Source of the DNA: an uncultured delta proteobacterium
GTDB lineage: Bacteria; Desulfobacterota; Desulfomonilia; Desulfomonilales; Desulfomonilaceae
Assembly (NCBI GenBank): GCA_963789265.1
Contig: CAWBKB010000005.1
Coordinates: 288,001-352,000 of the forward strand
DNA: 64,000 nucleotides
Direction: 5' to 3'
The notes beneath the pieces were generated by a model. That model was not told the DNA's origin, ran no database searches, and saw only the letters and a list, made by a program, of their open reading frames with translations. The position numbers were made by a program, and so were the translations under genes. The first letter of the stretch is position 1. Every line of letters starts with the position of its first letter. Of this stretch, positions 8,846 through 23,622 are shown piece by piece.

Positions 8846-9316
8846 TCAGGGTTGAGCGCTGCTTTGGTTGCGGTCTCTTTCATCGGGGATCAACGTTGGC
8901 ACTATGTCACATATATTGGTCGGATTCGTCGTGTCCTTTCGTTTCCACACCCTAGCCAGGCTATGGAGGCCGGCAAGTTTGCGGGAACCGTGAGCTCGGT
9001 CATCGCGAGAAGGTATGGGCTTACCGGTTACCTCGCCATAAATGGCATTTAGGATCTCCTCAAGGCTGTTAAAGACAGTTTGAACGATCACGGGGTCAAG
9101 CTTAAAATCACCTATCGGCGTGCGCCCCTTTTCCAGAGTATCCTCGGCAATATTGTAGGCTGCAACGACGCTGCGTATTATGTTATTTTTTCGGTGAATC
9201 TCGCGCCAGGCTATCCAGGAAGCGAAAAGCGAGGTCATACCGAAAAGGACGCACATGACGAAAACAATCATATTGAAATACTTAATAGTTATATCGAGCA
9301 AATTCATGTCTTCCAT
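8846..9316 (-). CDS. Hypothetical single-TM protein
   Basis: ATG at 9316 with GGAGG upstream; hydrophobic segment IVFVMCVLFGMTSLFASWIAW. Confidence 0.6.
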   Translation of the reverse strand: MEDMNLLDITIKYFNMIVFVMCVLFGMTSLFASWIAWREIHRKNNIIRSVVAAYNIAEDTLEKGRTPIGDFKLDPVIVQTVFNSLEEILNAIYGEVTGKPIPSRDDRAHGSRKLAGLHSLARVWKRKDTTNPTNICDIVPTLIPDERDRNQSSAQP

Positions 9317-9586
9317 GAAAAAGTTCCTCCGCTGGTCAAACGACGGATTCCTACGCCTCCGGTCACAGGTGATGCACACCTATCAGGAATAAAGCGCAAC
9401 GTCAAGAAAAGGCAAAGAAAAATGTGGCTTTTTTATTTTTATGATTGAATTATCGAATCTTTTTGCAGATTGGTAGGGATAGGGATTCCCGAATGTAATC
9501 GCCGATTGTTTTCCGGCTCTCCCCAAAACGACGGACCGCAACCTGGCTGTTACGGCCGCGAGCGGGCCCGTCTAATCTTGCTGCGG

Positions 9587-10727
9587 TCAGAAGATCCGGG
9601 ACGCTAGTGGCAGATTTCGGACCAGAAACGCGACAGCGAAACAAAGCGGAACGCCGATGATCGCCGCCAGGCTGAATTTGAGCAGGTGTTCCAGCTCGAT
9701 GTTGCGCAGCGCCAGGCCGAGAAACACGATGACCGGAATGTGGATGACGTAAACCGTATAGGCCTGTCGAGTCAGGAACCGTCCGAACCGTCCCTGATGG
9801 TTGAGGAAGCGACGGAAGAAGGCAATCAGTCCTGAACAAATGCCGAACGAGAAGATGGAATCCCAGAGCGCGTAGATCCCGGACTCCCAGTGTCCTCGGC
9901 CCAAGAAGTTGGCTTTGCCGCTGAGCGCAAGCGGGAGCAGTACCAGTGTTGAGCCGATCGCAAGCACACACCCCACCTTGCCCATCGAGCTCGGCATGTT
10001 GCGAAACCAGTCGCGATGGTAGGCGACGGCACCAATGATAAAGAAGCTCAGGTACTGCGGAAAATAGGCAAGGCTCGGGAAGCCGAGCACCGAATGAGCC
10101 AGTGGCAGCACAGTGCGGACAAGGTAGCTTGCTAATGCCAGTACCTAGGACCGCGGCACCTATCAGTCGATAAGGTGGCAGGGTGGAGTCGCACTTGGGC
10201 CGGAGCGGCCGGTTCTTTGTTGCCAACCGCCACGCGACGTATCCGACATCGATGATAAGCAGCATTGCCACAAACCACATCGGCCCCATGGCGATCAACT
10301 TGGGATATTGCTGCCAGGTGAACGGTGTGGTGATGTGGGTCAACTCGCGTGGCATCCGATAGACCCCGACCCACGCAATCGGGTTGAGCACAAGAGCGTA
10401 AACGACCAACGGAATGCCCAGGCGACGAAACCTTTCCACCAGAAATCGAGTCGGTCCCTTACGGTGGAACGAGCCCGGCGTGAGGTAACCTGAGAGCAGG
10501 AAGAAGAAGCCCATGAAGTGGGCCTGGTTTAGGAGCTGAAACACCACGAGCACCATTGCCGCCCGCGCATCCCGGTACGCGGGCTCCTCGTAGTAAAAGG
10601 GCATGTTAGCCGCGTACATGATGGCCAGATGGTGCAATACCACTAGTGTCGTCAAGGCCACCCTGAGGTGGTCGACGAAGAACAGACGGGTTCCTGCTTC
10701 AAGTGGCGGCGGTGGACTGGTGGCCAT
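9587..10727 (-). CDS. Acyltransferase family 3 (OpgC/MdoC-like) membrane protein (one +1 indel at 10144-10145)
   Basis: DHLR..LVVLHH, MGFFFLLSG, RRLGIP, WF and AYTVYVIH motifs spread over two ORFs that join when one base is removed. Confidence 0.85.
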
Positions 10728-10855
10728 ACGCCGTTTCCCTTACGAGTGGGATACAGGTCCGGAGCAGTACGGCCCCCTGGTAAGAGCTGACTTGAACCCC
10801 ATGTTTTGAGTCCGTAATTGAACCAGGGAAGAGGGGATCTCAATTCAGATGGTGG

Positions 10856-11287
10856 TCATTTTTGCTGTTCTGCGATCTTGTCGATCTCTTCGTCGATGAA
10901 TTTTTTGAATGCGTCACCCGGGGACATTAGTGCCCCCTTTTCCGCTTCAAGGTTGGATGGGCGAATCTTGCAAATCCAGGCAGCGCCGTATGGATCTTCG
11001 TTCATTTTTTCGGGTTCGTCCTCCAAGTCCGTGTTCACCTCCGCGACCTCGCCTGAAACCGGTGCATAAATCCTACCAACCCACTTGCCGGACTCGATAG
11101 AACCATAAGGCTTACCTTGGGTCACTTCGCCCCCCTCTTCAGGCAGATCCACGAATGTGATTTCCCCTGCCTGTTTGGAGATAAACTCAGTGGCACCCGT
11201 GACTACCAGACCGCCTTCCTCTTTCGCCCAGAAGTGATTCTTTTCGTATTGTAGGTCATCAGGGAACACATACCCCTTATGCTCCAT
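10856..11287 (-). CDS. gcvH: Glycine-cleavage H-like lipoyl-carrier protein (LbpA-like ESGKWVG motif)
   Basis: PDDLQYEKNHFW, GSIESGKWVGRIYAPVSG (lipoyl-Lys), NEDPYGAAW; GAGGAG RBS. Confidence 0.88.
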   Translation of the reverse strand: MEHKGYVFPDDLQYEKNHFWAKEEGGLVVTGATEFISKQAGEITFVDLPEEGGEVTQGKPYGSIESGKWVGRIYAPVSGEVAEVNTDLEDEPEKMNEDPYGAAWICKIRPSNLEAEKGALMSPGDAFKKFIDEEIDKIAEQQK

Positions 11288-11406
11288 AGCATCCTCCTCT
11301 AAAGCGAAATCGAAATTAAGAAATCGGCCGCAGCACCTTTACAGGAATCACGCGCCTTTGGCATTCCGTCCAGGCTTGTCCGGTTTATCCCGCGGCAATA
11401 TCGGCA

Positions 11407-12282
11407 TCAACCTTCCACGATTTTCAGCAGCTCGGAAGGCTTCACACGGTTCAGCTTGAACCCCAGTTGCTCGGAGGGCAGGCCAAAGGCCAAGCCCAAG
11501 ATTTGCGGATAGTAAACCACCGGCACTTTGAGGTCAAGACCTGCCGCTTTTACGATCTTTTTTTGTTGGCCTTCATACATCACATTGCAAAAGGGGCAAA
11601 CAAGAACGAGCGCGTGAGCTTGGGCGTCGGCCACATCGATCAATTTTGTAACAGCCATCGCATTGGCGACTTCTTCTGATATTCCAAGCAGTCCTCCGCC
11701 GCAGCAGTCCTTAAGCGAGGGATAATTAATTACCTGCGCGCCGGTTGCAGAAATTAGTTCTGTCAGTGTCTTGGGGTCCGAGGCCGAATCAAAGCCGGCT
11801 GTCAACTCAGACGGCTTCAGGTAGTGGCAGCCGTAGTGAGGCGCAAGAATCACACCGGTGAGGGGCCGCGTGACAGCGTCCTTGATCGCTTCCGCGCCTA
11901 CCTCTTCCCACAGCAGCCTCATATAATGGCGAACCCTCACTGGACCTTCATATCGTAGACCAACCTCCTTGAGACTCTTGTTCACTTGTTCTTTTAGCTC
12001 CGGATTGTTATCCAGCGCGTGGGCTGTTTCCGCCAGGGTTCCCGCACAGGCGTTGCATAGAGCGCAGATTTCGACCCCTTCTCTTTCTGCCAGTGCCAGG
12101 TTACGTGCAGCGATCAGCGTCGTTTGATGTACATCCAATGATTTTAGCGGAAATCCACAGCATCCGAAGGCTTCGAGATCCCTGAAGTTAATGCCCAGCG
12201 CGCGTGCAGTCAATCTCGCGGACAATTCATAGTTAAGGTTCCTGACGGGCACGGTGCAACCAAGGTATAAGAGTGCTTCCAT
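11407..12282 (-). CDS. hdrB: Heterodisulfide reductase subunit B-like protein
   Basis: Two CCG domains: YLGC..GCCG..CNAC and HYGCH..DCCGG..CPFC. Confidence 0.93.
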   Translation of the reverse strand: MEALLYLGCTVPVRNLNYELSARLTARALGINFRDLEAFGCCGFPLKSLDVHQTTLIAARNLALAEREGVEICALCNACAGTLAETAHALDNNPELKEQVNKSLKEVGLRYEGPVRVRHYMRLLWEEVGAEAIKDAVTRPLTGVILAPHYGCHYLKPSELTAGFDSASDPKTLTELISATGAQVINYPSLKDCCGGGLLGISEEVANAMAVTKLIDVADAQAHALVLVCPFCNVMYEGQQKKIVKAAGLDLKVPVVYYPQILGLAFGLPSEQLGFKLNRVKPSELLKIVEG

Positions 12283-12365
12283 GAGAACTGTCTTTCATTC
12301 CGCTGCAATTTTTAGCCGCTGGAATCTTATTAAATCGCTTCGGGGGCGAAATAGCCTGCTATCGG

Positions 12366-12830
12366 TTACAGTAGGCGGTTGTAGTCTTCAGGGTGTTCAA
12401 CAAGGGAAGGCAGGCCAAGCTTATTGCGCTTTTCGTTCTCAAACTCACCGACCTCGTAGAGACGGCCATGCTGTTTAAGCAGCGATTTTTGACCCGTCAA
12501 CCCCGGTGGTACACAAGCCTCGGCAGCCGCGAGATTCTTGATCGCGAATATCACCTCGGTGAAGCGCACATTCTGGGGGCACACTTCGTGACACCCGTAG
12601 CAACTGGAGCAAAGCCAAATGAAATCACTCTCCAGCACCTCCTTTTTCATGCCCAGCAACACCATGCGTATGATCTTTCGTGGATCGTACCGTTTGTCTA
12701 CCACATTGATCGGGCACGCCGCGCTGCAAGCTTTGCAGGCAAAACATGCCCTGATGGCCTCACCTCCCGGTTGTTGCGCCACACGATGCTTAAAAGAAGG
12801 GTCGAGCGTATTCAGTTTGATGCGGCTCAT
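12366..12830 (-). CDS. hdrC: Heterodisulfide reductase subunit C-like protein
   Basis: CFACKACSAACP, DPRKIIRM, IWLCSSCYGCHEVCPQ. Confidence 0.93.
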   Translation of the reverse strand: MSRIKLNTLDPSFKHRVAQQPGGEAIRACFACKACSAACPINVVDKRYDPRKIIRMVLLGMKKEVLESDFIWLCSSCYGCHEVCPQNVRFTEVIFAIKNLAAAEACVPPGLTGQKSLLKQHGRLYEVGEFENEKRNKLGLPSLVEHPEDYNRLL

Positions 12831-14413
12831 AGTATCGCTCCCCCCATATTGCGGACCGCTTCTACGAGGACGTTGGGGGTATTGCTCGCAATGGGAACGA
12901 ATTTCACTCTGTCCGGGTCCATCCCGATTTCTGTAAGAAACTCTCCCACTTGACCGATTCTGCTCTCGGCAAGCAGGTTACCGTATACCGACGCGCAGTT
13001 CCCTTTGAAGCAGCCGGCGACAATCACCCCTTTAGCACCTGATTCCAATGACTCCCAAATATGGTTCAGGCCGACTGTCCCTGCGCAGGGAACTGTAATG
13101 GATACGAGGTTCTCGCCTAAGCAGTGGCCGACTGACTCCATCGCGGGAGCAGCCGAGCGGGAGCAGAGGAAAACCGCTATTTTGCCACCGGCTCCGGCAT
13201 GGGTCAGGTCCGCTCTGATTCGCTCTAATATCGCGCTTTGAGGTTGTACGGGAGTTAACTTTATTGCTTCCATGGGGCATTCTGCCGCACAAATGCCGCA
13301 ACGAGTGCATGTGGCAATATCCGCTGCTGCTTGTTTACTGAAACTTATCGCCCCATGTGGGCATACGCGCACGCAGGTGAGGCACATCGTACATTTGCCG
13401 GGATCGACCTCCGGAGGGCCTGGAAGTTCCGCGAGCGGCGGTTCGGGGATGGGCCTCTTCAGCGCTCCTACCACTGCCTCGATGTCGCCGCGTATAAGCT
13501 CGGGATCAAAAACTCCACGTGAACCGCCCACAGCGAAGATTCCTGCCTTAGGTGTGTCCACTCCTGCAAACCGTATTGATTCTGGCTTCAGAAATGGAGC
13601 TGCGAACCGCCAAGAAGGAATGGCATTAGAAACCGGCTCCAGAATCGGGGGAGGAAACAACTCTTCGTCCACCACCAGCAGATCCGGCACGAGTTCCATT
13701 TCCGAACCCAACAGTGGATCCAAGAAGCTAATTACCGGTCCATCCGCGCAGCTCTCGAAACATGGCCCTTCGAGGTCGAACTTGAAAAACAACGCACCCT
13801 TCTCTCGGCATTCTCTGTAACGCCTTTCCAGTCCGAAAGCGGCCACCTTGAGGTGGCGCGTGAATACGTATGTCTGCACTTGTCCAAGGCTCTGAAGTTT
13901 TTCTATGGCATCGAGAACTCTTGAAAAAACAGCCGGGTGTGACCCCCCTTCAAGTCCAAGCAGAAAAGCTGCATGGAACCAGTCGCCTGATCGACGCTCA
14001 AGTGTGTTTTCGGTTTGAAGGTCCGCTTCCAGGTCTGACAGGCTGAGAATCTTTCTAGATCGGGCCAGTCCGTATGATTCGTACTTTGGAACGACCGTTG
14101 CCGGCTTCGCCGCGACAATAAAGCCCACCTGTTCTGTCAAACGCCCGCTGCCGGTTCGCAGAGTTACTTCGAATCCGCCTACGAAGCCTTGAACCTCATC
14201 GAGGTCCGCATCCGCTAACAAACGAACCTTTTCGTACAACCCGTCCGAGGAAGCTTTTCCGGCCAGGAGCACATCAAAACCTTCCTCGGCCAATCGCAAA
14301 GCGAGATCTTTGCCTGTTGCATCGCCGCCAAGCACAAGTACGCGCCTGTAAGCTCCGTTCCCCGCCTTGAACTCCCTCGTCAGGAATACCGATCCGGTTA
14401 CCGATGCTTTCAC
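12827..14413 (-). CDS. Degenerate HdrA-like domain + 2[4Fe-4S] ferredoxin + MvhD/FlpD fusion
   Basis: HdrA-like remnants (GFVGGFEV, GIFAVG), CTMCLTCVRVCP and CTRCGICAAECP, MvhD motifs FLC..VPCAG..GCFKGNC; overlaps both neighbours by 4 nt. Confidence 0.85.
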   Translation of the reverse strand: MKASVTGSVFLTREFKAGNGAYRRVLVLGGDATGKDLALRLAEEGFDVLLAGKASSDGLYEKVRLLADADLDEVQGFVGGFEVTLRTGSGRLTEQVGFIVAAKPATVVPKYESYGLARSRKILSLSDLEADLQTENTLERRSGDWFHAAFLLGLEGGSHPAVFSRVLDAIEKLQSLGQVQTYVFTRHLKVAAFGLERRYRECREKGALFFKFDLEGPCFESCADGPVISFLDPLLGSEMELVPDLLVVDEELFPPPILEPVSNAIPSWRFAAPFLKPESIRFAGVDTPKAGIFAVGGSRGVFDPELIRGDIEAVVGALKRPIPEPPLAELPGPPEVDPGKCTMCLTCVRVCPHGAISFSKQAAADIATCTRCGICAAECPMEAIKLTPVQPQSAILERIRADLTHAGAGGKIAVFLCSRSAAPAMESVGHCLGENLVSITVPCAGTVGLNHIWESLESGAKGVIVAGCFKGNCASVYGNLLAESRIGQVGEFLTEIGMDPDRVKFVPIASNTPNVLVEAVRNMGGAIL

Positions 14414-15639
14414 TGGTCCTCCCCACGAGAGATCTTGGCAATATATGAGGTAACTTGACCGGCAGTTCGGATCGCATGGGAAACTGTTTCCTCGATGGAT
14501 TTGGGTCCCTGGACAGTTCCGGCAACGAATACTCCGGCGCGACTGGTTGTGACCGCCTCTCCGTTTCCCCCAACGAAGCCGTCCATATTCAAACCCACAC
14601 CAAGCAGATTCCCGAGTGCGGCACTTGAGTGGCTCGGGGAGATGCCCCCACTTAAAACTACAAGATCAAACGATTCTAAGGCCCTCTTGTCATCCGACCC
14701 GTGATAGACCAACTCCGGCTTGCCGTCCAGCGCGGTGCGGATTTCTGACGGAATCGATCGGATCAGCTTCACCTCTTGCTCGGCCTCCTTCAGGCGCTCC
14801 TCGAAGTCACGTTCAAAGGACTGGATATCCATGTAAAACATTGACAGGTCCACCTGAGGAAAGCGAGTTCGCAAAAGACGCGCGAGTCTTAAAGCATAAG
14901 CGCAACAAACGCGTGAACAGTAATTCCGCCCGATTTTGGCGTCTCGACTCCCTACGCACTGAATAAAAGCAATTTTTGCGTTGCCACCTGGATCCCAGCA
15001 GTTCTGTCTAAGTAGCGACTCAAGTTCAAGACCTGTGACAACTCCCGGCACCCGGCCGTACCCGAATCGAGGAGTTTCGGTAGGGTCAGTGGGCTTGAAA
15101 CCGGAGGCCAACACAACTGTTGATGCATGAACGTCAAGGATGTCATGACTCCGATCAAGCTTAACGGCCTCTCGACGGCAAGCATCCCGGCAGGCATGGC
15201 ACGAGGCATCCTGAAACCAAAGGCATCTCTGCTCGTTTATGGCAATAGCGCGATTCCAAGGAGAGCGCAGGAGCGCTCCCGGAACAGGGCAGACAGCCTC
15301 GCACGCTCCGCAATTGTTGCATCTTTCGGGCATTATTAGGAGAGGTCTTCGGGAAATGGTTAGTTGAAAATCTCCAGGCTTGCCTTCGACCTGAAGCAGG
15401 TCCGACTGAAGGAGCACAGTAATCCGGTTCGACAATTGCACTTTATGCAGAATATCTTCCAGGAGACAGGCGCCGCATCGCTCGCATTGATCAGTAGCCT
15501 TGCAGCATAATTGTGCGACATGTCCGCCCGGAAATGCAGCGGTTTCGACGATCACAGACTCCAATCCCAGCCGGGCCAGTTCCCACGCGCACCATAGTCC
15601 GGCTATGCCGCCGCCAAGGATCACTGCGTCTTTCTTCAT
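14410..15639 (-). CDS. hdrA: HdrA-like FAD/Fe-S protein
   Basis: ILGGGIAG FAD motif, inserted ferredoxin (CNNCGACEAVCP), FIQCVGSRD..YCSRVCC, GVFVAG..GPKSI. Confidence 0.9.
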   Translation of the reverse strand: MKKDAVILGGGIAGLWCAWELARLGLESVIVETAAFPGGHVAQLCCKATDQCERCGACLLEDILHKVQLSNRITVLLQSDLLQVEGKPGDFQLTISRRPLLIMPERCNNCGACEAVCPVPGALLRSPWNRAIAINEQRCLWFQDASCHACRDACRREAVKLDRSHDILDVHASTVVLASGFKPTDPTETPRFGYGRVPGVVTGLELESLLRQNCWDPGGNAKIAFIQCVGSRDAKIGRNYCSRVCCAYALRLARLLRTRFPQVDLSMFYMDIQSFERDFEERLKEAEQEVKLIRSIPSEIRTALDGKPELVYHGSDDKRALESFDLVVLSGGISPSHSSAALGNLLGVGLNMDGFVGGNGEAVTTSRAGVFVAGTVQGPKSIEETVSHAIRTAGQVTSYIAKISRGEDQ

Positions 15640-15801
15640 CGCGTAAGTGCCTTACCACAGCCGAGTCAACCCTGCAGGGAAGCATGGCCGGCTCAGCAGC
15701 TTCACTGTTGCCACAGACGAAATGCCGGCCACGAACCGCCGGAAACGGGAAAGTCCGCCGCCTGGAGCGGTTTGCATGGAGAACACTTACGGAACGGATT
15801 T

Positions 15802-16497
15802 TCATCCTTTCCGAGCGGTGTGATCGCCGGCCGATAAAAGTTGATATTCTCTCCGAACTATTTTAGCGGGGTGTGTGCTCCGATCGTTGCATTTGGGCGG
15901 CACGATCTCTTTCAAGAAGTCAAGACGCGATTGGCGTTCTAGCCGAGAAATGATCTGTACCCACGCGCAATCCCTTTGCGGGTCTGTTTCGCACTTGCCG
16001 TTCTTTGGGCCCCCACACGGTCCGTTCAGAAGTCCTTTCGCGCACATCGTTACGGGACAGATGCCGCCGGTGATCCCAAGATAGCACTGATTGCAAGATC
16101 GACAACGCTCGGACCACACGCCGGCCCCTTCGGACACTCCTATGAAGCTGGTGTCCACGCCGGGAAAGACCGGGATGTCGGGATACATCTCGGCGAGGAA
16201 CTGGATGCCGGCCCCGCAAGCCAGGGACACGATCGCGTCAACTTGCGCTACATGATCGCGAAACAACTGTATGAATTCGCGGTCGCATTGGCGTTCCACT
16301 GTAGCCGCTACGGCCTGGAAATTTTTGTTGTCATGCCCTGCGGCAAGTTTAAGACGTGTTGCGAGAATTCCCGCTTCTTTCTCTCCACCTGTTAGGCAAA
16401 CCGCGACGCACGTTCCGCACCCTGCCACGAGAATGCGTGAATAGCCGCGTATCATTTTCTGGATTTCGACAAAGGGTTTGGCTTGAGCAACAATCAC
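15802..16497 (-). CDS. metV: Methylene-THF reductase small subunit (MetV / MTHFR C-terminal domain)
   Basis: GCGTCVAVC, ERQCD, LACGAG, ERCRSCNQCYL..GGICPVTMCAKGLLNGPCGG..CE..CAW. Confidence 0.88.
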   Translation of the reverse strand: MIVAQAKPFVEIQKMIRGYSRILVAGCGTCVAVCLTGGEKEAGILATRLKLAAGHDNKNFQAVAATVERQCDREFIQLFRDHVAQVDAIVSLACGAGIQFLAEMYPDIPVFPGVDTSFIGVSEGAGVWSERCRSCNQCYLGITGGICPVTMCAKGLLNGPCGGPKNGKCETDPQRDCAWVQIISRLERQSRLDFLKEIVPPKCNDRSTHPAKIVRREYQLLSAGDHTARKG

Positions 16498-16544
16498 GGG
16501 ATCCTCAAGAGGCGGAATCTGGCGAGTTTAAAGGTCTATTAATA

Positions 16545-16573
16545 GGAATAGCGGAGGCAGCCCAGGGTGTCAA
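16545..16573 (-). promoter_or_regulatory. Putative sigma70 promoter of the metV-hdr-gcvH operon
   Basis: TTGACA-17 nt-TATTCC on the minus strand, about 50 nt upstream of the metV GTG. Confidence 0.55.
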
Positions 16574-16830
16574 GTACGGAACCGGTCCGGTCCAGGCAAT
16601 CGGTCGCAGGCGAGCACTGTGCCTTGCTCCTGCGTTGCCTGAAATGAAATGTTGCGCTGCTGGTACTCATTCACTCCTCGCAATGACAATCTCTTCCCGC
16701 ACGCAATTGAATGCTTACCGCTGCTGAGCAGGTTTCATTTTTCCGCGCTGAAAATTACTGCGTACAGCGTTCTGCGGGACTCGAGTCGACAACCTGTGCG
16801 ATCGCGAAAATTGGGCGAATACGGATTAAC

Positions 16831-18123
16831 TCAGGAAGCCTTGGCGTGCGGTACCGCGGCCATTTCTGCCCTTCGCTCAAGAGACCGCGGCTTGCGATTG
16901 GTTGGTTCATCGTGGTGCTTTCCGGAATTCGACGCACCCTGATCGGTAGGAATCCAGTCTCTGGCATAGAAGAGAAACGCGAACGCCGGCAACGAAAGGA
17001 AGAAAGTGAAGAAGAAATATTGCGCGTAGCCTACGCGAGTTGCTGCCCATCCGCTAACCGATCCCATAATAATACCCGGTATCTTGAAAAGGGCGGTGAG
17101 TAACGCGTACTGAGTGGCGGAGTACTCTTTCTTGCATACGCTCATTAAGAAGGCCAAAAATGCGGCGGTTCCCAGTCCCGCGCAAAAGGACTCGGCCACT
17201 GATGCGAAGTAGATACCCCAATTACCCGTTTCGGGATAAGCCGCGACCCACGCATAGCTGAGATTAGCACCAGCTTGCCATATTCCAAGGAACCAGAGGC
17301 CGTGAAATATACCGAAGCGAACCATGAAGAGCCCTCCGGCCAATCCCCCTACAATCGTCGCAAGGATTCCCAACGAGCCGGTGATTAGCCCTATTTCAGT
17401 GGTGGACAGGCCCCTATCCAGCCAGAATGGGCGCACCATTGGCCCTAATGCCATGTCTCCGAGCTTGTACAAAAGGATGAAAAGTGCCACCTGCACCAAA
17501 CCCGGTCTACTCAAAAAATCCTTCACCGGGGCCGCCAGGGAGGAAAGCGAAAACTTTGGCCGTTTCACTTCCACCGCGGGGAGTCTAAACGAAACTACGC
17601 TGCATACTGCCAAAATCGTGGCTGCCGTCAGGAAAGTGCTCTTCCATCCGATCCAACCTCCCAGTGCTATAAACAAACCGCCTGCAACCACCATCGCAAC
17701 GCGGTAAGCCGCGATCCTGAAACCATTGGCGATTCCCATTTCAGATGGCTGGAGCAACTCTATAGTGTAAGCATCTACGGCTATGTCCTGCGTGGCTGAC
17801 ATTACTGCAAACGAAAAAATGCAGGTCCAGAGCAAAAATGCGGGATGAGTGGGGTCCAGGGGAATAGTCAGCACCATTAACGCAGCCATGCAGAACTGCG
17901 CGGCCGATATCCAATGGCGCCGTTTTCCCAAAAAATCCACCGCCGGAGCCCAGATGAACTTCAGCGCGTACGGAAGGCTCAACAGGCTCAGCAGACCCAC
18001 GTGCACCAGAGAGATCTTATGGATGCGGAAATATACTGGAAGTGTTTGCTCAATGATTCCGAAGGGAAAACCTTCTGCAAAATACAGCAGCGAAACGAGC
18101 AAGAGTTTTCTATTGAGTTTCAC
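16831..18123 (-). CDS. ampG: AmpG-like MFS permease
   Basis: LYFAEGFP, LPYALKFIWAP.VD, SATQDIAVDAY, LYKLGD, ATQYALL. Confidence 0.85.
   Translation of the reverse strand: MKLNRKLLLVSLLYFAEGFPFGIIEQTLPVYFRIHKISLVHVGLLSLLSLPYALKFIWAPAVDFLGKRRHWISAAQFCMAALMVLTIPLDPTHPAFLLWTCIFSFAVMSATQDIAVDAYTIELLQPSEMGIANGFRIAAYRVAMVVAGGLFIALGGWIGWKSTFLTAATILAVCSVVSFRLPAVEVKRPKFSLSSLAAPVKDFLSRPGLVQVALFILLYKLGDMALGPMVRPFWLDRGLSTTEIGLITGSLGILATIVGGLAGGLFMVRFGIFHGLWFLGIWQAGANLSYAWVAAYPETGNWGIYFASVAESFCAGLGTAAFLAFLMSVCKKEYSATQYALLTALFKIPGIIMGSVSGWAATRVGYAQYFFFTFFLSLPAFAFLFYARDWIPTDQGASNSGKHHDEPTNRKPRSLERRAEMAAVPHAKAS

Positions 18124-21448: not shown

Positions 21449-23622
<2,174 letters not shown>

Follow-up and report, generated by a model that had tools for sequence, protein, structure and literature searches.

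An uncultured delta proteobacterium of the family Desulfomonilaceae (phylum Desulfobacterota; NCBI GenBank assembly GCA_963789265.1, contig CAWBKB010000005.1) carries an operon that combines genes for a heterodisulfide reductase (Hdr)-type complex with a gene for a lipoyl carrier. The stretch of DNA that was analysed, referred to as the window, comprises 64,000 nucleotides and corresponds to positions 288,001–352,000 of the contig. Six co-oriented open reading frames (ORFs) occupy positions 16497..10856 of its minus strand and encode a MetV-like protein, HdrA1, an HdrA2-MvhD fusion, HdrC, HdrB, and a 143-residue GcvH-like protein that is named GcvHx here. The identities of the ORFs were assigned using Pfam and NCBIfam models. 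Comparative evidence suggests that the lipoyl group of GcvHx may be the disulfide substrate of HdrB. Labels beginning with G, C, L, and f denote genomes, contigs, loci, and families of this study. The features of the operon are, from its upstream end:

16568..16573, minus strand: TTGACA, read directly ahead of the first gene, a candidate −35 box.
15802..16497, minus strand: MetV-like Fe-S/zinc-ribbon subunit, 231 residues, with no MetF adjoining (PF12225, 2e-34).
14410..15639, minus strand: HdrA1, 409 residues, a thioredoxin-reductase-like flavin adenine dinucleotide (FAD) domain with an inserted ferredoxin domain (NCBIfam HdrA2 model, 9e-75).
12827..14413, minus strand: HdrA2-MvhD fusion, 528 residues, the C-terminal part of HdrA, a 2x[4Fe-4S] ferredoxin domain, and MvhD (PF02662, 1.3e-24, residues 412-524).
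12366..12830, minus strand: HdrC, 154 residues (TIGR03290, 9.4e-27; qmoC model, 1.9e-18).
11407..12282, minus strand: HdrB, 291 residues, with two complete CCG motifs (TIGR03288, 8.4e-73).
11288..11406, minus strand: hdrB-gcvHx spacer, 119 nucleotides, with GGAGG ahead of the ATG of gcvHx.
10856..11287, minus strand: GcvHx, a KW-type lipoyl carrier, 143 residues, with the predicted lipoyl-lysine K68 (PF01597, 6e-38).

An earlier description of this DNA made from its letters, referred to as the sequence-only reading, had proposed six co-oriented genes ending in a gcvH-like gene, and the profile matches bear this out. The two 4-nucleotide junction overlaps that it noted are read as GTGA at 14413..14410 and ATGA at 12830..12827, one at each end of the HdrA2-MvhD gene. 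The remaining intergenic gaps are 162 nucleotides between the MetV-like gene and HdrA1 and 83 nucleotides between HdrC and HdrB. A consensus scan of positions 9300-17000 detected no terminator-like or promoter-like site in the hdrB-gcvHx spacer, and the spacer folds no better than shuffled sequences (z +0.84). The one promoter claimed in that reading amounts to no more than a candidate −35 box: the TTGACA at 16573..16568 is perfect, but its −10 is poor. The consensus scan found three promoter-like sites, compared to 4.0 expected from shuffles, and the TTGACA box is not listed among them because of its poor −10. As the sequence-only reading had stated, gcvP, gcvT, lpd, and metF are absent from the 49 window ORFs scanned (11 at the locus and 38 others of at least 110 residues), and PF02219 (MetF) has no match in the window. 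All GCV_H, MTHFR, and Lpd matches in the genome, with the exception of GcvHx, lie outside C5:288001-352000.

The Hdr subunits resemble proteins of known structure. HdrB matches methanogen HdrB over its full length (9sfi_C, 5e-59; also 8rvu_b and 5odc_B), and ten of its cysteines (C9, C41, C42, C76, C79, C152, C193, C194, C229, and C232) are invariant in 16 orthologues. They belong to a protein with two CX31-40CCX33-35CXXC motifs of the type predicted to bind noncubane clusters. HdrA1 covers residues ~145-565 of methanogen HdrA (8rvv_A, 2.7e-62; 5odc_A, 2e-59) and also matches 6tjr_A, which we take to be the sHdrA of Hyphomicrobium (4.3e-36). The PDB matches of the fusion protein are residues ~420-640 of HdrA and MvhD chains. 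The MetV-like protein has no PDB relative; it is 57% identical to the MetF-adjoining MetV of the loci from family f33. Filing of the operon as QmoABC-like was considered, based on the two HdrA-like genes, the second of which is fused to MvhD, and the match of HdrC to the qmoC model. It was kept as a resemblance only, because HdrC lacks a membrane part here and HdrB is present. The methanogen HdrABC-MvhAGD complex (5ODC, 8RVU, 9SFI) shares with the operon a full-length HdrB with both CCG motifs, the FAD domain of HdrA, and MvhD. By contrast, no hydrogenase is encoded here, and HdrA is split and lacks the N-terminal domain. Synthesis of coenzyme M (CoM) or coenzyme B (CoB) is not known from such bacteria; therefore, the disulfide must be something else.

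GcvHx has the H-protein fold, and its K68 aligns with the ESVK lysine of pea H-protein 1dxm. Its score against TIGR00527, the NCBIfam gcvH equivalog, is 122.9, only 7 bits over the cut-off of 115.85, and its Pfam score is 129.8 bits versus 149.3 bits for the canonical GcvH encoded on contig C8 of the same genome. The fold, the position of the lipoyl-lysine at the same hairpin, and the passing of the TIGR00527 cut-off are shared with canonical GcvH served by Lpd. Unlike canonical GcvH, GcvHx has ESGKW instead of ESVK[A/T/S] and belongs to a separate clade. The ESGKWVG motif pointed out in the sequence-only reading is present as IESGKWVG, and [IL]ESGKWVG occurs in 30 of 30 sequences, comprising GcvHx and 29 orthologues of at least 50% identity from a sample of 400 genomes of the phylum. 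The orthologues come from several families, including seven of the seven genomes of the window's own family.

In a first tree, built from 126 H-like proteins of the fetched loci, 93 of the 95 E[ST]GKW rows group together (SH-aLRT 93), and the 26 canonical rows form a group of their own (98). In a second tree, from which the seven motif columns were dropped and two lysine-less fusions were left out, a single branch with an SH-aLRT of 99 parts 98 KW-type rows, GcvHx among them, from 26 canonical rows, which include three of this genome's own paralogues; the rows had been picked by similarity or pattern, 17 of the canonical ones are from related Bacillales, and the alignment was short, with 133 columns. 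In the loci examined, a KW-type carrier never adjoins gcvT or gcvP. The separate clade and the presence of a canonical gcvT-gcvH-gcvPA-gcvPB operon elsewhere in the genome argue against GcvHx being an ordinary GcvH, an outcome that the sequence-only reading had named as fatal to its proposal. One member of the KW clade (L159, G258:C14:32100-50500) has an aspartate in the place of the lipoyl-lysine (VQPGDWLG), and therefore could not be lipoylated; no CCG protein is encoded in its locus.

The linkage of the carrier to HdrB is conserved. Among the 29 loci drawn from the other genomes of the phylum, 25 have an HdrB gene within 1.5 kb of the carrier; 23 of these HdrB genes lie upstream on the carrier's own strand, 2 are divergent, and the other 4 loci have none in this range. 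The neighbourhood survey that the sequence-only reading had called for thus supports it with respect to the pairing of HdrB and carrier. The order HdrA1, HdrA2-MvhD, HdrC, HdrB, GcvHx recurs within 9-kb flanks in families f1, to which the window belongs, f19, f33, and f106. MetV is positioned ahead of the hdr-carrier cluster in most f1 loci; none was found in the locus of genome G295 or in the five f19 loci fetched. The cluster of f33 reads HdrA, MvhD, MetV, MetF, HdrA1, HdrA2-MvhD, HdrC, HdrB, GcvHx, and that of three Bacillota metagenome-assembled genomes (MAGs) reads HdrA, HdrA/MvhD, MetV, MetF, GcvHx, HdrC, HdrB. A fusion protein of ~860 residues with GlcD, FeS, and CCG parts is encoded directly after the carrier in the f19, f33, and f106 loci scanned with Pfam; its orthologue in the genome of the window is unlinked (C3:851595-854183). 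The same-strand gaps from HdrB to GcvHx (n=36) range from 7 to 276 nucleotides with a median of 90.5, and 12 of the pairs are separated by 50 nucleotides or less.

The partnership extends beyond the phylum and beyond HdrB. The alignment of the carrier was compared to one genome per GTDB species, which yielded more than 600 stretches matching the pattern. The 80 loci that were kept include 59 of the E[ST]GKW type and 21 of the canonical ESVK type, the latter drawn in by a second pattern. ORFs with a CCG domain were called with our own profile, built from eight seeds, at E <= 1e-5. Such an ORF is located within 3 kb of the carrier in 43 of the 59 KW-type loci, compared to 0 of the 21 canonical loci, and anywhere in the locus in 50 of the KW-type ones. 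The taxa of the KW-type loci include Anaerolineae, Bacillota (among these Candidatus Formimonas warabiya), Actinomycetota, and Asgard, Thermoproteota, and Nitrososphaerota archaea. The neighbours of the carrier vary: they may be HdrCB(A), HdrD-like proteins with Fer4_8 and CCG domains, separate or fused GlcD-like flavoproteins, lipoate ligase, or a molybdopterin oxidoreductase with NrfD. The HdrD-like neighbours often come with a NarI/DsrM-like membrane protein of ~280 residues. Such a membrane protein adjoins the carrier in L068:6685-8901, L091:10551-11399, and L109:10534-12568, and in L068 and L109 it is followed by an HdrD/DsrK-like protein with Fer4_8 and CCG domains; the arrangement resembles a quinol:disulfide module of the membrane. 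In Ca. Formimonas warabiya (L102) and an Actinomycetota MAG (L085), the genes ahead of the carrier encode a GlcD-like flavoprotein and a CCG protein of the HdrD-like kind. Corrinoid and one-carbon (C1) genes surround it in both, with pterin-binding and URO-D-like methyltransferases in L102 and a RACo activase in L085.

Twenty further H-like loci, mostly second copies, were fetched from genomes of the phylum sample, and most of them represent another KW type, ESGKWLG, encoded between two CCG proteins. The CCG proteins on both sides of the carriers of this [VI]ESGKWLG subfamily of Desulfobacterota (L152-L156, L158, L161, L162, L165, L170) have ~370-510 residues, and HdrA is absent from these loci. 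The gcvH-gcvP loci L160 and L163, and L012 from the genome of the window, contain no CCG protein.

The 6.06-Mb assembly holds other genes for lipoyl and C1 metabolism. In addition to the canonical gcvT-gcvH-gcvPA-gcvPB operon on contig C8, it contains three Lpd genes above the cut-off, an acetyl-CoA synthase gene, a 2-oxoacid dehydrogenase cluster with Lpd, and four MTHFR matches, three of which adjoin a MetV gene and form MetV-MetF pairs. The motif of the canonical GcvH copy is VESVKAVS, versus IETIKATF in a third paralogue; there is also a fourth GcvH, as well as two fused GCV_H domains without the lysine. This makes GcvHx an additional paralogue and leaves the operon's MetV an orphan. The lysine-less fusions (L015:8481-9377 and L016:8964-10040; 298 and 358 residues) form a very long branch in the tree. 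The third paralogue (L014, G000:C1:2363000-2382000) is encoded next to DsrMKJOP-like genes, in a cluster with the order ArsR-type regulator, small ORF, GcvH, two DGC-domain proteins, Lpd, radical-SAM protein, LplA; this cluster appears to be a lipoyl module in its own right, as yet unexplained.

INDEPENDENCE from glycine cleavage and Lpd was examined in five genomes picked for a single H-like match in the phylum sample, each of which has a KW-family H-like protein, no canonical GcvH match, and a completeness of 95-99%. GcvP was found in 0 of the 5, whereas the same search was positive in 10 of 14 model genomes that served as a control. Two of the genomes, G295 (f1, the family of the window; 99% complete) and G034 (97%), have one GCV_H match each, which is of the KW type and located beside Hdr/CCG genes. 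No match to E2 was found in either, and none to Lpd above the cut-off (best scores of 369 and 146 bits, respectively, versus 408.8). Both genomes have a lipoate-protein ligase; the only one found in G295 is a 527-residue fusion of an LplA catalytic domain and DUF116 (L175:571-2154). Genome G081, from the same family and likewise 99% complete, has kept the operon and has no GcvP match, yet E2 and Lpd are present. In G288 and G314, the match carries IQSRKWIG and has LplA as its neighbour; the ~3.6-kb loci contain no CCG ORF, and these matches support the wider KW family only. The KW carrier thus differs from canonical GcvH in being kept where gcvP, E2, and Lpd above the cut-off were not found, and the co-occurrence with P- and T-proteins expected of canonical GcvH is not seen in G081, G295, or G034, where the search for GcvP found no match.

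The explanation that we favour, with a probability that we put at roughly 55%, is that the lipoyl dithiol/disulfide of the dedicated carrier GcvHx is the substrate of HdrB. Many anaerobes keep the pairing of Hdr and carrier, and therefore protein-bound lipoate is a testable candidate for the disulfide of HdrB. GcvHx, with its H-protein fold, would carry lipoate on K68, and the dithiol/disulfide would meet the CCG site of HdrB with its two predicted noncubane [4Fe-4S] clusters. HdrA1, HdrA2-MvhD, HdrC, and HdrB would form a soluble complex, with MetV as an accessory electron-transfer subunit. The complex would shuttle electrons between HdrB, with its bound lipoyl group, and the HdrA flavin; beyond the flavin, the ferredoxin domain and MvhD would hand them on to ferredoxin or to a partner bound by MetV, perhaps a MetF encoded elsewhere. 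MetV may dock such a MetF or serve merely as an Fe-S subunit. Lipoyl-GcvHx would thereby play a role like that of CoM-S-S-CoB for methanogen Hdr, where it links HdrDE and HdrABC, or of DsrC for DsrK. In relatives, the GlcD-FeS-CCG fusions and the HdrD-like proteins with a DsrM/NarI-like membrane protein may recycle the same carrier. We infer lipoylation, binding to HdrB, the direction of electron transfer, a possible bifurcation, and a possible coupling to methylene-tetrahydrofolate (methylene-THF). The suggestion of the sequence-only reading that HdrBC acts on the lipoyl group instead of Lpd fits the conserved HdrCB/CCG partnership and the persistence of the carrier in genomes in which P-protein, E2, or Lpd above the cut-off were not found, evidence that is comparative in kind.

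Several points weigh against this proposal. Its evidence is drawn entirely from gene neighbourhood and phylogeny. Lpd could serve GcvHx in this organism, because the genome has three Lpd genes above the cut-off; activity of GcvHx with T- and P-proteins is possible, because it passes the gcvH equivalog cut-off; and gcvHx could be transcribed separately, because a 119-nucleotide gap precedes it. In G267 and G148, two of the seven genomes of the window's family f1, the hdr genes, including the hdrB orthologue, and gcvHx are on different contigs. No CCG protein is encoded within 3 kb in 16 of the 59 KW-type loci, the eight seeds of the CCG profile came from these same loci, the canonical control loci are mostly from related aerobic Bacillales, and the related genomes in the linkage counts are not independent of each other. 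At about -290 mV, lipoamide has a potential far below that of CoM-S-S-CoB; therefore, the carrier would not be a simple copy of the high-potential acceptor of methanogen Hdr. Kremp et al. 2022 (PMC9430772) found that neither lipoate nor dihydrolipoate, added in free form, altered the rate at which Sporomusa ovata membranes reduced methylene-THF with H2; that test concerns the free cofactor in another organism. Co-folding of HdrB and GcvHx from alignments gave a score of 0.01 versus a mark of 0.32, with controls not run, and is evidence neither way.

A similar gene set is known from Moorella thermoacetica and S. ovata, where it encodes the Hdr-type methylene-THF reductase MetFV-HdrCBA-MvhD; there, MetV, HdrA, MvhD, HdrC, and HdrB are likewise encoded together. 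The operon described here contains all five, with HdrA split and MvhD fused. It differs in having no MetF, in the distribution of HdrA over two genes, and in ending with a lipoyl carrier. The second acceptor of this reductase is described as unknown, with no assay of HdrBCA activity, in the available text of Kremp et al. 2022 (PMC9430772). The names of Moorella and Sporomusa are missing from the 120 best matches to a Bacillota carrier, from which nothing can be concluded. The idea from the sequence-only reading that MetV is the outlet to methylene-THF holds up weakly: MetV-MetF adjoins the carrier in f33 and Bacillota, but there is no MetF in the operon, and MetV was not found in the locus of G295 or the five f19 loci.

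The constant core is HdrA(-MvhD), HdrC, HdrB, and the carrier, whereas the MetV(F), GlcD-CCG, and HdrD/DsrM-like modules come and go. A broader proposal, which we hold to be less likely than not, is that lipoate bound to KW carriers serves Hdr and CCG enzymes outside the methanogens quite generally as their "heterodisulfide", with the carrier acting as a small diffusible dithiol/disulfide protein shuttle. Its loading or unloading would fall to CCG dehydrogenases, such as the GlcD-FeS-CCG fusions and the HdrD-like proteins with a DsrM-like partner in the membrane, and bifurcating HdrABC-MvhD complexes, including the Hdr-type methylene-THF reductase, would use it. A related thought has been voiced for the Ehe cluster of Culexarchaeia, where a GcvH gene is encoded with HdrB and HdrA2B2C2: one paragraph of Kohtz et al. 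2022 (PMC9723716) suggests that GcvH could carry a moiety with a disulfide for use by HdrB. That case, unlike the present one, concerns archaeal MAGs and a membrane hydrogenase, and the available text presents no carrier subfamily, survey, or bacterial Hdr-MetV operons.

An unlikely alternative is that GcvHx is a sulfur carrier like LbpA, whose lipoyl arm would bind sulfane sulfur as a persulfide and present it to the Hdr-like complex, as has been proposed for sHdr-LbpA, but here in the sulfur metabolism of a sulfate reducer. The gene order of sHdr is hdrC1B1A-hyp-hdrC2B2, unlike the HdrA-MvhD-HdrCB set found here. The Hdr of the operon is of the bifurcating type, with HdrA, MvhD, and one HdrCB, along with a MetV-like subunit; furthermore, the hosts of KW carriers are strict anaerobes (such as sulfate reducers, Anaerolineae, Bacillota, and archaea), unlike those of sHdr. 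The match of HdrA1 to 6tjr_A and the DsrMKJOP-like genes of the host favour the sulfur carrier. So does the precedent: sHdr is always linked to the GcvH-like LbpA, which is essential in Hyphomicrobium (Cao et al. 2018, PMC6067878), and sHdr-LbpA is the established example of dependence of an Hdr-like complex on a lipoyl protein related to GcvH. As described from Hyphomicrobium denitrificans, Thioalkalivibrio, and Aquifex, sHdr-LbpA shares with the present system a CCG-type HdrB complex tied to a single-domain, non-cleavage lipoyl protein, and in some members of both systems dedicated lipoate ligases are encoded nearby.

The hallmarks of LbpA are two conserved cysteines, near the N- and C-terminus (Cao et al. 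2018, PMC6067878; Kumpel 2026 preprint), and a surface that is less acidic, with a higher isoelectric point (pI), than that of GcvH, values below 4.5 being coloured as GcvH-like in the part of the Kumpel 2026 preprint that was available. Like LbpA, GcvHx is encoded with hdr-like genes. By contrast, it has a single cysteine (C106), present in 26 of the 30 orthologues, with no conserved N-terminal cysteine, and its pI of 4.46 lies within the GcvH-like range of 4.05-4.98 of the 30 orthologues, compared to 4.23 for the canonical GcvH of the genome. The scanned ORFs of the window, the only part of the genome covered in this respect, include none for the sulfur transferases DsrE, TusA, and rhodanese, which would be expected to accompany an LbpA. 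No LbpA chain is present among the PDB sequence matches of GcvHx, even at E 10. The likeness to LbpA drawn in the sequence-only reading therefore fails with respect to the cysteines, the pI, and the sulfur transferases.

It is improbable that GcvHx works with the T- and P-proteins of glycine cleavage or synthesis, with Hdr replacing Lpd and coupling C1 units to methylene-THF through MetV. GcvHx does pass the gcvH equivalog cut-off, a MetV-like gene heads the operon, MetV-MetF adjoins the carrier in the relatives from f33 and Bacillota, and the genome has gcvTP and the acetyl-CoA synthase gene. However, canonical GcvH is encoded in the gcvT-H-PA-PB operon elsewhere, the clade of GcvHx is apart from it, and GcvP was found in none of the five genomes with a KW-family but no canonical match, including G081 and G295, which keep the operon. 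In addition, KW carriers occur beside CCG proteins without nearby C1 genes, as with the GlcD fusions and the HdrD-like proteins with cytochrome-b-like membrane proteins. The tie to glycine cleavage or synthesis that the sequence-only reading had entertained is thus not upheld.

There is also a slim chance that GcvHx is an auxiliary or structural partner rather than the substrate of HdrB, acting as a lipoyl relay or donor, as a thiol protectant of the Fe-S/CCG site, or as a regulator. The GcvH of B. subtilis is such a lipoyl relay (PMC6067878, available text), and lipoate ligase genes adjoin the carrier in some relatives (L071, L127, L168, and L169). A relay would need a recipient, and G295 and G034 show no other lipoyl acceptor, either E2 or a second GCV_H match; moreover, the link to CCG proteins of many architectures points to the CCG site itself. 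Mere adjacency, with gcvHx a separately transcribed extra H-protein gene after hdrB, is very improbable, since the 119-nucleotide gap and the two same-family genomes with the genes on different contigs stand against a linkage that is kept over several families and phyla in same-strand and divergent arrangements, has 12 of 36 same-strand gaps of 50 nucleotides or less (minimum 7), and is absent from 21 of 21 canonical loci.

The operon is flanked upstream by a gene for an AmpG-type transporter and downstream by an acyltransferase_3 gene that is broken by a frameshift. The latter comprises the ORFs 9450-10727 (minus strand) and 9587-10111 (minus strand), with profile positions 3-151 in one and 187-323 in the other, and is a frameshifted pseudogene or an assembly indel. 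A glutamyl/glutaminyl-tRNA synthetase also appears to be split in the window, over the overlapping ORFs 22337-23140 and 23131-23622 (both plus strand), with the catalytic domain, from profile position 74, and the anticodon-binding domain in separate ORFs. The split synthetase, together with split high-scoring pairs in the related MAG loci L073 and L074, suggests indel errors in such assemblies.

In the full-text literature covered, which did not include subscription journals, no study was found that characterises such a carrier or describes the KW subfamily, and the one explicit link between GcvH and HdrB is the suggestion in PMC9723716. KW-type genes carry the label "glycine cleavage system protein GcvH", a systematic annotation error that should be corrected, as genome-based metabolic models can be misled by it into assuming glycine cleavage or the reductive glycine pathway. 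HdrABC-type complexes of bacteria and non-methanogen archaea are widespread in acetogens, sulfate reducers, syntrophs, and Asgard archaea, with no thiol/disulfide substrate known, and a 143-residue, expressible carrier with the diagnostic ESGKW motif is a concrete substrate candidate for them. If the broader proposal is true, carrier-bound lipoate would also account for the second substrate of the Hdr-type methylene-THF reductase, an open point since 2014. The role of lipoate would then extend from sulfur oxidation, where it serves sHdr-LbpA, to anaerobic energy metabolism in general.

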